Origin: a virus
Taxonomy: Duplodnaviria > Caudoviricetes
Direction: 5' to 3' (one strand)
Virus record (IMG/VR): IMGVR_UViG_3300006428_000044
Span: 1 to 32,949 of that record
Length of the DNA: 32,949 bases
Shown: piece by piece, positions 1 through 6,082 of the stretch
Numbering within the stretch: the first letter of the stretch is position 1
Layout: each line of letters begins with the position of its first letter
Notes under the pieces: generated by a model
What the model saw: the letters and a program-made list of their open reading frames with translations, nothing else
Database searches by the model: none
Told to the model about the DNA's origin: nothing
Translations under genes and position numbers: made by a program

Positions 1-1197
1 TCATTTTGGATTGTTTGCAAATGCCAAGTTGACCTTTGAAATCAGATCCTTGGGCTGATTGTATGTCAGGTGAGCGTAAATATCCAGAGTGATTTTTGCA
101 TGCTCATGTCCGGCGAGCACCTGAACCGTCTTGACATCAACACCGGCCAGCAGGAGATTTGTGATATACGTGTGCCGGAGCTGGTGCGGCGCTACATGGA
201 AGTCGATGCTGTAAACGACCGTATTGTTGTGAGCAGCCTTTTCGCCTAGCGTCGGGGTCACGGTGTGCTTTATTTTTTGACCGTTAACATAGCGGGTATA
301 GGTTCGCTCCTTCGTACTGCGGACGGTAACGTATTTCCAAAGCCGCGTCCATTGTGTCCCGGAAAGCGGGCCACCGGTGCTGCTGGCGATCACATAATCA
401 TCCGCAGAGGATTCTTTGACGGCCTTTAGGCACTCCACCAACTGGGGCGGAATTGGGATGGTTCTCTTCGAGGCTTTTGTCTTCAGGTCGGGCAGCACGA
501 CCGGCCGGTTATGCTCCGTGTGCCATGCCCTGCAGACCGAAATATGCGGTGCATTGCCGTCAAGGAATACACTGTCCCATTGCAGGGCTAGAGCCTCCTC
601 GCGGCGGAGGCCGGCGTAAAGACATAGCATGATGAATGGATATGGGGGCAGCCCACGAACGGCGTTCAAAAGAATCGTGACCTGCTCCCCGGTAAGAGCC
701 TGCTTTTCCTTTGCGGCCTTCCCGCCTTTTGGGTTTAAGTTTTCACAGGGGGATTCGTCTATGATGTGGCTCTCAACGGCAGAGGCGAAGATCATCTTGT
801 AAAGCATTTGCACACCCCGATAGATCGAAGCGGACTGTGAGGCGGCTTTGGTTGTCGCCATCTTCACATCGTCTGGGGTAACTTCGAGCATATGCTTCTC
901 ACCAAGCGGAGCAATAATATAAATTTTAACCTTTGAGGTGTAATCAATCAGTGTCGTAGTTCGGATATGCGGCGCGTGCATGGCAAGCCACTTCTCGGCG
1001 TAGTCCTGCACCGTTGGATTCTCGCGCCGGTACACGGCCTCTTCAATCTGGCGCTGCGCAGCTTCTATTTTTTCCGTCAGCGCCACCGGGGTCTGGGCGT
1101 AGAGAGCCGCATACTTACCATCCGGACCTTTAATCCGCTTGCGGTACTCATTCCGACTTGCAACGAATTCATAAGTCGGTTTTTTCGGTCGCGCCAT
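1..1197 (-). CDS. int: Tyrosine recombinase/phage integrase
   Basis: Catalytic motifs GLRREE, KT, HQLRH, LAGH, DIYAH; GGAGG RBS just upstream. Confidence 0.95.
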   Translation of the reverse strand: MARPKKPTYEFVASRNEYRKRIKGPDGKYAALYAQTPVALTEKIEAAQRQIEEAVYRRENPTVQDYAEKWLAMHAPHIRTTTLIDYTSKVKIYIIAPLGEKHMLEVTPDDVKMATTKAASQSASIYRGVQMLYKMIFASAVESHIIDESPCENLNPKGGKAAKEKQALTGEQVTILLNAVRGLPPYPFIMLCLYAGLRREEALALQWDSVFLDGNAPHISVCRAWHTEHNRPVVLPDLKTKASKRTIPIPPQLVECLKAVKESSADDYVIASSTGGPLSGTQWTRLWKYVTVRSTKERTYTRYVNGQKIKHTVTPTLGEKAAHNNTVVYSIDFHVAPHQLRHTYITNLLLAGVDVKTVQVLAGHEHAKITLDIYAHLTYNQPKDLISKVNLAFANNPK

Positions 1198-1246
1198 AAC
1201 ATTCCTCCGTCACTTCTTTAGCAATGCAGTGAAATATTAACGATTT

Positions 1247-1990
1247 TTAATTGCTATTTGTTTCTTGTATTGCTTCGACTATACCATTGTCAAAATAGAT
1301 ATATCCACAAGAATAGACCCATTGCTCTCCAGCGCCGTTGACTGTGGTCGTTTTGTTCTTTTTTTCCGGATACCCCCAAGTCGAATCAATTACTTGTTCT
1401 TCCGTCATACCGATTTCCGGAGCCACTAGCAGCTCGGGATGGTCTGTGGAATCGCTTTCTTTGTCAAATACATTTCCGTCTGATACAGTGCCGTTTTTTT
1501 GGACAGCTCGATAAACCAGCTGCCCGTTTTCATCAACGAGCAATACCGCTGGAAGCAAAGCGCTTGAACCACTGCTATTAACCGAACCGTCATCGTTCAA
1601 GGATAAATCAAAAGAATCCTCAGTATCTCCGCTACTATGGTGGTTAATATACAACAATTCCCAACCACTGATTACGATTGTTTTGGGAAGGAATTTGGCT
1701 CCATCTTCCCACGTCCCTTGATATGGCATCATAACCGATATATTTTCAATATAACTTTCTGAATCACGATATTCCCCTAATTCTTGAAACATAACAACAG
1801 CCGTTGCAAAGTCCCCTGCTTCATATTTCTCAACAGCATTTAGATATTTTGATTCTGACGGTGAATTTATTGATGAATTTACTGACGATGGTAAGTCATC
1901 AGAAGTGGGACTTGTTTCACCACCATGATCGCATCCAGATAAACAAATAAGTATTATTAATAAGTACGCTATGAATGCTTTTTTTCTCAT
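1247..1990 (-). CDS. Lipoprotein, lysogenic-conversion or superinfection-exclusion candidate
   Basis: MRKK + hydrophobic stretch + lipobox LSGC; Ser-rich linker; TPR-like helix pair; C-terminal IGMTEEQV..WGYP..EQWVY..YIYFDNG domain; AT-richer than the rest of the window. Confidence 0.8.
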   Translation of the reverse strand: MRKKAFIAYLLIILICLSGCDHGGETSPTSDDLPSSVNSSINSPSESKYLNAVEKYEAGDFATAVVMFQELGEYRDSESYIENISVMMPYQGTWEDGAKFLPKTIVISGWELLYINHHSSGDTEDSFDLSLNDDGSVNSSGSSALLPAVLLVDENGQLVYRAVQKNGTVSDGNVFDKESDSTDHPELLVAPEIGMTEEQVIDSTWGYPEKKNKTTTVNGAGEQWVYSCGYIYFDNGIVEAIQETNSN

Positions 1991-2085
1991 TTAAATTTCC
2001 CCCATAAATTTAAATATACAGCAAGAAATTGTCGTTTTGTGGCGGAAGTAATTAAATATCTTTTCCAGCATGAAATACTAAAATC

Positions 2086-2094
2086 TGCTATAAT
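2086..2094 (+). promoter_or_regulatory. Extended -10 promoter (TGcTATAAT) upstream of small ORF 2137..2304
   Basis: Perfect TG-N-TATAAT ~40 nt upstream of an RBS-led ATG; no clear -35. Confidence 0.6.
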
Positions 2095-2136
2095 GACCAT
2101 ACTGCCGGCAGCTACTTTTTAAAAGGAGCTGGTCAC

Positions 2137-2304
2137 ATGGATAAGCGAGATAATAGCTGGGAAGAGGTGCGCGATACGTACCTCTCGCTTGACGATGGAG
2201 AAAAAAGCCGAGTACACGAGTTCATTTTGAGTTTGCTAAAAACCGAATATAATCAGCAACGTTCTGTTTCTTCTCTGAGGGAAGACCAGCAAACAAATGA
2301 CTGA
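2137..2304 (+). CDS. 55-aa small protein, putative anti-repressor, convergently overlapping the repressor 3' end
   Basis: AAAAGGAG RBS at 2121-2128; MDKRDNSWEEVRDTYLSLDDGEKSRVHEFILSLLKTEYNQQRSVSSLREDQQTND; resembles the repressor C-terminus. Confidence 0.7.
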   Translation: MDKRDNSWEEVRDTYLSLDDGEKSRVHEFILSLLKTEYNQQRSVSSLREDQQTND

Positions 2305-2575
2305 TATCCGCATCCAGTCCGTCATCAGAAATGGTGGCGGACGTTTTTATTTCACGTTCCATACAGGCGTCAAAGCCCATAAGCCACGCTTCGGAGACAT
2401 CAAGTGCGAGTGCAATGGCATATACAGCATCTTGCTTTCCCTCCCAGTCACCTTTTAGGTAGTGGGTGATGCTGGATTTGCTTATTCCTGTTCTTTTCGC
2501 CAGTTCAGTTTGCGTGACATTCCGTATATCTATCGCTTCCCTTAATCTGGCCGCAAACGTTTCGACCTTCGCCAT
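2222..2575 (-). CDS. Xre-family HTH repressor (CI-like), 117 aa, no S24 peptidase domain
   Basis: RLREAIDIRNVTQTELAKRTGISKSSITHYLKG HTH; start moved to ATG 2575 because of GAGGTG RBS at 2582-2587. Confidence 0.9.
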   Translation of the reverse strand: MAKVETFAARLREAIDIRNVTQTELAKRTGISKSSITHYLKGDWEGKQDAVYAIALALDVSEAWLMGFDACMEREIKTSATISDDGLDADISHLFAGLPSEKKQNVADYIRFLANSK

Positions 2576-2606
2576 ACCCAGCACCTCACATTTGAAGAGT
2601 GAAATT

Positions 2607-2635
2607 ATTATAACCTGCTTGTTTAGAAAAATCAA
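2607..2635 (-). promoter_or_regulatory. Repressor promoter TTGATT-17-TATAAT
   Basis: Minus-strand -35 at 2630-2635 and -10 at 2607-2612, 17-nt spacer. Confidence 0.7.
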
Positions 2636-2730
2636 CATTAATGGAGAAAAAATTTAGATTTCTCAAATAACCGTGTTGACAAACTCAAACCCGTATGCTA
2701 ATCTTGTCTCGGCGGTTGAGATTTATCAAC
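2621..2730. promoter_or_regulatory. Operator cluster, consensus GTTGAG-N4-CTCAAC
   Basis: GTTTAGAAAAATCAAC 2621-2636, ATTTAGATTTCTCAAA 2652-2667, GTTGAGATTTATCAAC 2715-2730. Confidence 0.75.
2676..2704 (+). promoter_or_regulatory. Early lytic promoter TTGACA-17-TAATCT with TG extension
   Basis: TTGACA 2676-2681, TG 2696-2697, -10 at 2699-2704. Confidence 0.7.
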
Positions 2731-2751
2731 AGATATTCGGAGGTGGTAAAA

Positions 2752-2970
2752 GTGCCAAAAATGAATTACTCAAGACTGCTGGGCAGAATTAAAGAGTTCG
2801 GTTACACACAAAAATCTATTGCCGCCCTTGTGGGAATCAGCGAGGGACAAATGAGCCAAAAGCTAAACTTCAACTACGGATTCAAGCAAACTGAGATTCA
2901 GAAAATGTGTAACCTGCTTGATATATCTGCTCAAGAAATTGGCGAATATTTTTTTTCGCCGTGTAGTTGA
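2752..2970 (+). CDS. Cro-like HTH protein (DUF739-like), 72 aa
   Basis: YSRLLGRIKEFGYTQKSIAALVGISEGQMSQKLN...EIGEYFF; GTG start after GGAGGTG; divergent from the repressor. Confidence 0.88.
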   Translation: MPKMNYSRLLGRIKEFGYTQKSIAALVGISEGQMSQKLNFNYGFKQTEIQKMCNLLDISAQEIGEYFFSPCS

Positions 2971-2983
2971 GAAACCTCAACTA
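2964..2983. promoter_or_regulatory. Perfect operator palindrome at the end of cro
   Basis: TAGTTGAG-AAAC-CTCAACTA. Confidence 0.75.
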
Positions 2984-2999
2984 AGGAGGTGATGACGTT

Positions 3000-3242
3000 G
3001 TGACTAATGAAAAGGCGTGCGGATTGTTAACCAGAAAAGAAGCAGCGGCGCGGTTGGGTGTATCCGTGGTTACCCTGGATATCGAACGCAGCAGCGGACA
3101 TCTAGCGTACATACAGCGCAAACCGGGAGGCAAAGTGTGGATTACGGAAGAAGCAATTTCCGAATATCTGGCGCGAGCAACACACCAAGCCAGACCTGAA
3201 AAGAGCACGATTCGGTCGCAGTTCCTTCGAAAAAGAGCCTGA
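3000..3242 (+). CDS. Excisionase-like HTH DNA-binding protein
   Basis: LLTRKEAAARLGVSVVTL...VWITEEAISEYL; AAGGAGGTG RBS. Confidence 0.8.
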   Translation: MTNEKACGLLTRKEAAARLGVSVVTLDIERSSGHLAYIQRKPGGKVWITEEAISEYLARATHQARPEKSTIRSQFLRKRA

Positions 3243-3272
3243 AGGGCCAAAATGATGAAAGGAGCACACAAG

Positions 3273-3428
3273 ATGAAAGGAGCTGTTATTACCCCTAAAA
3301 CGAGCGGCGCGATCGCAAAAAAAGAAGAGGCCGTGCTGCTGTCACAGACACGACCCCGGGCAAATAAACCTGTCAGCATCATATCAGTATCGCGCGCAGC
3401 TGTCAATCAGGAGAGGTGGTGCAACTGA
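3273..3428 (+). CDS. Possible 51-aa leader ORF, TGATG-coupled to the next gene
   Basis: GAAAGGAG RBS; stop overlaps ATG 3428; spans the antisense sRNA. Confidence 0.4.
   Translation: MKGAVITPKTSGAIAKKEEAVLLSQTRPRANKPVSIISVSRAAVNQERWCN
3317..3372 (-). ncRNA. Putative ~55-nt small RNA antisense to the early operon
   Basis: Follows a consensus promoter; hairpin GGGGUCGUG...CACGGCCUC then UUCUUUUUUU; G-U pairs work only on the minus strand. Confidence 0.6.
3378..3406 (-). promoter_or_regulatory. Promoter TTGACA-17-TATGAT with TG extension
   Basis: -35 at 3401-3406 and -10 at 3378-3383 on the minus strand. Confidence 0.75.
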
Positions 3429-5341: not shown

Positions 5342-6082
5342 ATGAAAATACATACATCGGCAAAGGCCGAGGGCACCGGCTCTCCGGCTCCTGCGGCCGC
5401 TCAAATGCGGAGACTGCGGAAATCTCGGGGAAAGGCACGCAGAGCCCAGGGCGCAATAGTCATCGCGGCGCTGGCGCTTTGTTCCGGTATAATCTTCGGC
5501 GGCTTTACAACGAATACTGAAGCTGAGTCAGATAAAGCAACCTTCACCCCGACCGCAGAAGCCGCTGTACCATTGGTAAAATGCATCACCACCAAGGCGG
5601 CACAGCCAACAGAGTCTATTGCTCCTGAGCTCCCTGCGCTTCTGTCCGGAGCTGCGGACCTTGACATCGACACCCAGCGGCAGATCTACGAGGTGTGCGG
5701 AGAAGACGATCGCCTGTTCTGCTGCGTCATGGCTATCGCAGACCAGGAGACTAAATTCGATACGGAGGCCGTCGGTGACGGAGGCCGGAGCATCGGCCTC
5801 ATGCAGATCAACACCGCATGGCAGCAGGACAGGATTGACAGGCTCGGAATCACAGACCTTACAGATCCCGCACAGAATGTAACCGTAGCCATTGATTACA
5901 TAGCATGGTTGACAAGCCACCTTGATTTAGGTGAAAGCCCCTACGAGAGCCACGCCCTATACATGGCCTACAACATGGGGCTAAAAGGTTCCAAAGATTG
6001 CGGCGCCGCCCAGACGGAATATAGTACTGCGGCCTTGGAGCTTTATCATGCCTACCTCGCGGAAATGGAGGCGGCAAAGTGA
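5342..6082 (+). CDS. Membrane-anchored SLT-domain lytic transglycosylase-like protein
   Basis: Hydrophobic segment near the N-terminus; QET, GLMQIN and AYNMG motifs. Confidence 0.8.
   Translation: MKIHTSAKAEGTGSPAPAAAQMRRLRKSRGKARRAQGAIVIAALALCSGIIFGGFTTNTEAESDKATFTPTAEAAVPLVKCITTKAAQPTESIAPELPALLSGAADLDIDTQRQIYEVCGEDDRLFCCVMAIADQETKFDTEAVGDGGRSIGLMQINTAWQQDRIDRLGITDLTDPAQNVTVAIDYIAWLTSHLDLGESPYESHALYMAYNMGLKGSKDCGAAQTEYSTAALELYHAYLAEMEAAK

Follow-up and report, generated by a model that had tools for sequence, protein, structure and literature searches.

The DNA analysed (referred to as the window, 32,949 nt) spans a full viral record that represents a provirus with an estimated completeness of 63%. 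Profile searches gave the gene order integrase, lipoprotein-like gene, XRE repressor, DUF739 gene, and excisionase-like gene, followed by replication genes and then by terminase, portal, and capsid genes. The lipoprotein-like gene (247 aa, 1247–1990, minus strand, no Pfam match) lies between integrase and repressor in a slot that holds different genes in related loci. A gene with an SLT transglycosylase domain and a predicted membrane segment (5342–6082, plus strand) is located among the early genes, outside any tail or lysis block. A leader-plus-ORF module identical in type to the one described below was found in three named genomes (L182, L140, and L137), and because these are two Oscillospiraceae and one Clostridiales, the prophage host is probably a Clostridia-type bacterium. 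The features of the switch region are the following:

1–1197, minus strand: tyrosine integrase, open at the window edge (profile match)
2030–2046, plus strand: tandem Spo0A-box-like site (7+3+7), about −71 to −55 from the predicted start
2047–2060, unstranded: conserved AT-rich block, consensus AGTnATWWWWATC (pairwise identity 0.45 versus 0.27–0.33 in the flanks)
2086–2094, plus strand: extended −10 promoter box, TGCTATAAT; no −35 box was recognised
2101–2112, plus strand: near-invariant palindrome R-CTGYCGRCAG-C at the predicted +1, sole exact copy in the window
2109–2131, plus strand: predicted hairpin enclosing the ribosome-binding site (2121–2128)
2137–2304, plus strand: ORF of 55 aa whose product is predicted to imitate the repressor tail with two helices; candidate antirepressor
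2222–2575, minus strand: XRE repressor, 117 aa, with a TP901-1 CI-like DNA-binding domain, a linker, and two C-terminal helices
2317–2352, plus strand: intrinsic-terminator-like hairpin with T-run, written in the repressor's linker codons
2621–2636, 2652–2667, and 2715–2730, unstranded: three related operator-like repeats between cI and mor, kept in the relatives L002 and L033
2752–2970, plus strand: DUF739 protein, homologue of TP901-1 MOR (E = 2.3e-9)
2966–2981, unstranded: distal operator-like palindrome (first noted as 2964–2983)
3000–3242, plus strand: excisionase-like HTH_17 protein (profile match)

The 55-aa ORF and the repressor gene overlap tail to tail by 83 coding nucleotides. On neither strand does the window contain a TGnTATAAT other than the box TGCTATAAT, and the ribosome-binding site AAAAGGAG (2121–2128) ends 8 nt before the ATG; box, ribosome-binding site, and overlap were all found where a preliminary description of this DNA had placed them. 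That description had called the ORF hidden, which is correct in part only: the ORF is present at 2137–2304, but an identical protein was already contained in the protein collection. With the small protein as query, tblastn against viral contigs gave no relatives, and the search of the protein collection gave two proteins only, itself and one relative. Relatives were therefore gathered via the repressor and via the promoter motif. Searches in Pfam, PHROGs, PDB sequences, and the Atlas, as well as fold searches, revealed no match specific to the peptide (Pfam and PHROG families stayed below significance, and all Atlas matches were <0.9), and Rfam gave no match in positions 1200–3400.

Using the repressor, 246 loci were collected (247 including the window), of which 226/247 were complete with 200 nt downstream and formed 125 clusters. 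An ORF was counted when it was preceded by a ribosome-binding site, ran on the opposite strand, had 35–80 aa, started 40–200 nt behind the repressor stop, and ended inside the repressor gene. Such a convergent ORF was present in 24 of 53 clusters with short repressors versus 2 of 60 with S24-type or long repressors (Fisher p = 6e-8, with the reservations that kinship among the loci lets p-values overstate independence and that three S24 genes with an apparent frameshift and the probably spurious match L149 were left in the short class), and in 1 of 12 clusters of other classes. Hence the ORF is conserved opposite homologous repressors, where the preliminary description had proposed to look for it. 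One locus with a type-B repressor tail (L127) had no small ORF by the criteria used; a double-HTH gene follows it. The search that started from the promoter motif used no protein and gave 80 loci (64 distinct). Eighteen of the 64 contained an ORF led by a ribosome-binding site; an HMM-confirmed convergent XRE gene was found in 14 loci, all among these 18, and in none of the 46 loci without such an ORF. Two loci of this set (L270 and L295) had a convergent XRE gene by inspection, and a relaxed leader search gave no additional module.

From the 39 repressor–ORF pairs obtained, 33 remained once near-copies were removed. The overlap was 2 modulo 3 in 33/33 pairs, i.e. a single reading phase, and the open frames at S24 control loci were split 14/13/12 among the phases. 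In the non-overlapping codons, pN was below pS in 6/6 pairs of the window's type; the values for the four types were 6/6, 66/66, 14/15, and 15/15 pairs (uncorrected, pairs not independent). Conservation within the small ORF was lowest at the third codon position (0.35 versus 0.54 and 0.61). Judged by these substitution patterns, the 55-codon ORF is a real, conserved gene under purifying selection. A chance open frame, with which the missing significant Pfam or PHROG family and the Atlas matches <0.9 would agree, is hardly conceivable in view of the cluster enrichment, the promoter-first search, the phase common to 33/33 pairs, the purifying selection, and a conserved terminator-like hairpin.

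This hairpin, followed by a T-run, is located in the linker codons of the repressor. On the antisense strand, a terminator-like hairpin was found in the linker of 27/33 loci with the ORF versus 8/89 without it (3/29 and 5/60), and the sense-strand control gave 0/33. With its predicted promoter, ribosome-binding site, and predicted terminator, the small ORF is a complete predicted transcription unit, and the opposite-strand terminator probably explains the conserved codons of the repressor linker. Because the predicted transcript stops in the linker, near 2350, its overlap with the repressor is limited to about the last 130 coding bases. The preliminary description had assigned to this transcript a second, antisense layer of the switch. 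This layer is not retained: the terminator-like hairpin would stop the transcript in the linker, and, by analogy, the RNA plays no role for AimX of Bacillus phages. It is rather improbable that the main effect of the unit on the messages of the repressor and the downstream integrase comes from antisense RNA or from interference by convergent transcription, with the peptide being secondary. The strong extended −10 box, the 83-nt coding overlap, the conserved terminator, and the type-C loci, which retain the unit although their peptide is no tail mimic, would suit such a role. It is opposed by the predicted transcript end near 2350, far from the repressor start, by the purifying selection on the non-overlapping codons, and by the recoded and start-to-stop alleles of AimX, which exclude an effect of the antisense RNA there, as given in the available text of the preprint (bioRxiv 10.1101/2025.11.23.689978).

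The core of the peptide had been aligned without gaps to the repressor tail in the preliminary description. The nine residue pairs are as claimed (V/I, Y/F, L/L, K/K, V/V, E/D, F/Y, I/I, and L/L), but the likeness of the window's own pair is within chance (p about 0.15) and reaches significance at the family level only. The core of the window's pair contains 5/26 identities at a BLOSUM62 score of 17, BLASTP of the peptide against its own repressor gave no alignment, and shuffling gave p values of 0.13 versus the tail and 0.42 versus the whole repressor (0.17 in a second test). Across the 33 pairs, the cognate score was 32.5 versus 26.0 for non-cognate pairs, with none of 20,000 permutations as high. 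The cognate excess persisted on the non-overlapping part (p = 0.001), and a control in which peptides were scored against the repressor HTH gave z = −0.25. Covariation between ORF and repressor, proposed earlier as a check, is thus evident from the better match of the peptides to their own than to non-cognate tails. Individually, 17/33 peptides beat their own shuffles and 16/33 did not, among the latter all five type-C peptides, which share the phase, the leader (4/5), and the terminator (4/5) and have no resemblance to the repressor tail. A profile–profile comparison of peptide and tail gave a probability of 96.7 and an E-value of 3.7e-10 in the register first noted; the E-value is flattered because the 19 of 39 pairs used were chosen by eye as mimic-like types. 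A predicted two-helix hook that shares apolar residues with the repressor tail is found at the family level, in this selected subset.

Further peptide types were observed. A second type of 57–61 aa (L034, L248, L268, L275, L309, and L320) occurs beside a distinct repressor tail; it has the same phase, mostly the same leader and terminator, is unlike its tail, and is possibly a non-mimic antirepressor. Another type (L144, L065, L246, L156, L100, L109, and L232) has promoters with a −35 box in some loci; L144 and L232 carry LexA-like boxes, and at five of the loci another XRE gene lies downstream. At L107, L227, L111, and L210, where the overlap is 38 nt, repressor and peptide are homologous over their last 12 codons, and both ends are written into almost the same 38 bases, one on each strand.

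Both proteins were modelled as two helices at the end concerned, comprising residues 3–16 and 20–52 of the peptide and 87–96 and 100–115 of the repressor. Modelling of the complex, which the preliminary description had suggested, gave a peptide–repressor score of 0.39 versus 0.02 for the best control; the runs agreed in at least 91% of contacts, and the pLDDT of the partner was 68. The score is in the weak range of the calibration, in which the mark was reached by 116/157 solved pairs and 2/215 mismatched pairs; of these, only 18 solved pairs, together with both mismatched ones, had scores of at most 0.60. The predicted complex lends weak support to peptide–repressor binding, and its passing of the mark may stem from likeness to the solved complexes 1B0N and 9SF2. 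In fold searches, the peptide matched generic helical hairpins only (best Z 5.9), and the repressor model gave SinR second in the ranking.

The head of the repressor matches the N-terminal domain of TP901-1 CI (E = 1e-7), and in the alignment the equivalents of the CI interface residues Gln55, Tyr59, Glu69, Met73, and Phe75 are kept. The gene referred to as cro in the preliminary description encodes a homologue of TP901-1 MOR, in which the equivalents of the interface residues Tyr5 and Phe67 are kept and those of Tyr3 and Trp43 are replaced. This identity had been overlooked there, as had the terminator, the upstream control elements, and the fact that the design is already in print. Together with the distal palindrome, four related operator-like repeats are present. 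By homology, the switch that carries the cassette is of the TP901-1 CI/MOR type. The available text on TP901-1 reports that its CI dimerises via a helical hook without autocleavage and that its induction is RecA-dependent by an unexplained route (PMC11149083). ORF3 of TP901-1 (L482:2212–2649), directly behind cI, gave a Peptidase_M78 match with an E-value of 1e-5, above the cut-off; it is a candidate for an ImmA-type route of the induction that PMC11149083, in the part available, calls unexplained. In PhiSepi-HH1, no overlapping convergent ORF of at least 25 aa was found.

If MOR alone ran the switch, the ORF would be a remnant left when the repressor 3′ end was duplicated in inverted orientation, or would have an unrelated role; the core of the ORF and the repressor tail are indeed mirror-symmetric about position 2236, and most interface residues of CI and MOR are retained. 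We consider this highly improbable, since the DNA identity between the cores is only 30/78, and scattered lineages have kept the frame, the ribosome-binding site, the promoter box, and the amino acids. That the ORF arose by inverted duplication would in itself be compatible with an antirepressor function.

Profile searches gave neither an S24 nor an M78/ImmA match in the record (provirus approximately 63% complete), which upholds the earlier statement that the repressor has no S24 domain and no ImmA-like gene nearby. The M78 scan covered 39/45 downstream ORFs, with six short or evidently spurious ones dropped and seven clusters having none; the window's own downstream ORF was covered in a separate profile scan. 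Of the clusters lacking the small ORF, 6/24 had an M78 neighbour (one of these below the cut-off), versus 0/15 of those containing it. The small ORF is nearly excluded from repressors with an S24 domain or a neighbouring ImmA-like protease. When presence of the small ORF was mapped onto a quick tree comprising 128 heads, 10 changes were required, with strong branches enforcing 3 of them. The clade of the window's head has support 97 and comprises 4 rows, among them L034, whose tail and peptide are different; its neighbours are heads with an S24 domain, in a region where the tree is poorly resolved. This arrangement suggests that tail and peptide are exchanged as a cassette, and terminator and leader appear to travel with them between repressor heads. 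On contig 5 of run X1, a leader as in window positions 2090–2131 with three changes is followed by a different reading-frame start, which hints at peptide exchange behind the same leader.

A peptide that binds the tail could also merely tune the repressor (its oligomer state or the switch threshold) or target repressors of co-resident prophages. The low identity between peptide and tail of the window's own pair, the fairly high score of non-cognate tails (26.0), and the MOR homologue already in the switch are in line with this reading. It appears unlikely, as cognate tails outscore non-cognate ones and as the ORF occurs where S24 and ImmA are missing, i.e. where an induction route is needed.

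The palindrome at the predicted +1 is mostly located 7 nt behind the −10 box. Its variation is nearly confined to two dyad-equivalent positions, so it would suit a DNA-binding dimer. As a host SOS box it was rejected, since 3/3 host lexA genes show GAAC-N4-GTTY-like boxes instead and the palindrome is absent from 7/7 lexA/recA upstream regions. A host regulon at that spacing was rejected as well: 7/301 genomes matched, one by the module itself and six without such a module. The ribosome-binding site was less accessible than in shuffled sequences in 19/24 hairpin predictions; a conserved structure is not claimed because the covariation of the hairpin equals that of shuffles (233/500 as high).

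The tandem site further upstream has 3 mismatches to TGNCGAA-N3-TGNCGAA and keeps G2, C4, and G5 in both halves, which are the bases contacted by Spo0A according to the available text of PMC3485338. Exact TGNCGAA boxes were present in 8/31 upstream regions (expectation 1.6; maximum 4 over 40 shuffles), without excess in 93 control loci and with 5/32 in the cI–mor gaps of the same loci. The 7+3+7 tandem fitted best at spacer 3, with ≤3 mismatches in 9/20 promoters (shuffles 1.7). Offset −59/−60 was the best of all tested (5.35 mismatches versus a median of 8.35); the best tandem match was at this offset in 12/20 promoters (≤4 mismatches) and missing there in 8/20, and the two nearest relatives, L002 and L033, have no tandem site at that offset. 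Spo0A-type domains are encoded in 5/5 host genomes tested, four of them in full-length-sized frames, and none was found in the phage record. No LexA box was found in the window, and LexA-like boxes were present in 5/39 related pairs; an AimR (PF22871) match was absent from the record (63% complete). Host Spo0A, not LexA, is the best candidate trigger of the small gene, although as a trigger it is put forward tentatively. Against Spo0A control, the site could serve a leftward promoter, the same box architecture precedes many other genes, and the adjacent AT-rich block is better conserved.

The tandem box was rejected as a module-specific element, as a convergent repressor was HMM-confirmed for 3 of the 34 distinct box-first matches, with 2 more being module-like by eye. 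A tandem TGTCGAA-like site exactly 42–43 nt before TATAAT fronts many unrelated phage genes (L491–L610; 34 distinct), possibly as a general promoter class. At L527, L492, and L495, tandem box and −10 box face short convergent genes; one of these is an HMM-confirmed repressor with a 36-aa tail-like ORF (4-nt overlap), and the other two are XRE-like by eye, with no ORF led by a ribosome-binding site found.

The product of the 55-codon gene probably acts as a peptide antirepressor of its cognate repressor. The preliminary description had it poison repressor oligomers; conservation, selection, covariation with the cognate tail, and the AimX/AimC precedent argue for this, and binding itself is suggested by the weak complex prediction. 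In the predicted heterodimer, the two predicted helices of the peptide, made from a transcript with predicted promoter and terminator, would occupy the position that the second tail has in the predicted repressor dimer. We infer that repression of the mor–xis lytic operon would thereby be lifted without repressor cleavage, and that MOR would then lock the lytic state through the DNA-binding domain of the repressor, as in TP901-1. The small gene would be tightly controlled by the +1 palindrome, the hairpin at the ribosome-binding site, and the upstream sites. This would provide a candidate induction route for repressors with neither S24 domain nor ImmA partner. In a more specific version, Spo0A bound at the tandem site, roughly 60–70 bases upstream of a promoter without −35 box, would activate the SinI-like mimic, which is otherwise silenced by palindrome and hairpin; the cassette would replace S24 on the same type of head and tie lysis of Clostridia prophages to development rather than to DNA damage. 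This version as a whole is doubtful. If the Spo0A link is true, it could account for prophages that wake on sporulation or stationary-phase cues and not on DNA damage.

The tail-mimic antirepressor mechanism is not new, as AimX–AimC and SinI–SinR precede it. Literature searches, with most subscription journals outside their range, found no paper on the tail-mimic design outside arbitrium or in Clostridia, and none on Spo0A gating a prophage antirepressor. Among known switches, TP901-1 (PDB 6TRI), in its available description, shares the CI head and MOR homologues, the related operators including a distal one, and a non-autocleaving CI. Its M78/ImmA-like gene lies directly behind cI, where the window phage has the small convergent gene, and its CI has 180 aa versus 117 aa here. 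In the lytic phage phi29, host Spo0A represses early promoters (available text of PMC2731898), so that there too a phage genome carries sites through which host Spo0A steers development; here, in contrast, Spo0A would gate the antirepressor of a temperate phage, either sign being possible. Phage–Spo0A precedents of other kinds are contained in the available part of PMC10294663.

In Bacillus arbitrium phages, small convergent overlapping ORFs bind the tail of short repressors, and binding of AimX to the C-terminal oligomerisation domain of AimC blocks oligomerisation and induces lysis, for which a likeness to SinI has been drawn (available text of bioRxiv 10.1101/2025.11.23.689978). The switch described here resembles AimX–AimC–AimL (PDB 9IAQ and 9SF2), as far as described there, in its short repressor without autocleavage domain, its divergent cro-like/HTH gene, and its small convergent overlapping ORF. 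As in AimX modules, the repressor is within 80–140 aa, and the convergent ORF is within 29–80 aa and co-varies with the repressor; 9IAQ was the only chain among the top 12 profile matches that ran into the tail (profile 8–113, E = 2e-8). According to the same available text, aimR/aimP lie directly upstream of aimX, whereas the upstream gene here is the 247-aa lipoprotein-like gene on the other strand, and a LexA box before the small ORF occurs in the phi106 family only among AimX systems, with none in the window. Unlike aimX as described there, the small gene apparently has its own promoter and terminator; its repressor has a TP901-1-type head with a MOR partner, and its peptide resembles the repressor tail in sequence at the family level.

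SinI–SinR (PDB 1B0N; available text of PMC3163267) likewise comprises a small two-helix protein that shares hydrophobic residues with the repressor tail, and sinI is transcribed under Spo0A control. The SinI family PF08671 matched 0/19 members at E up to 1 and nothing in the record. The present genes are located in a phage and are convergent and overlapping, whereas sinI and sinR are simply adjacent. The small ORF probably works like AimX and SinI yet belongs to neither system, and would extend their tail-mimic switch beyond arbitrium to Clostridia-type prophages.
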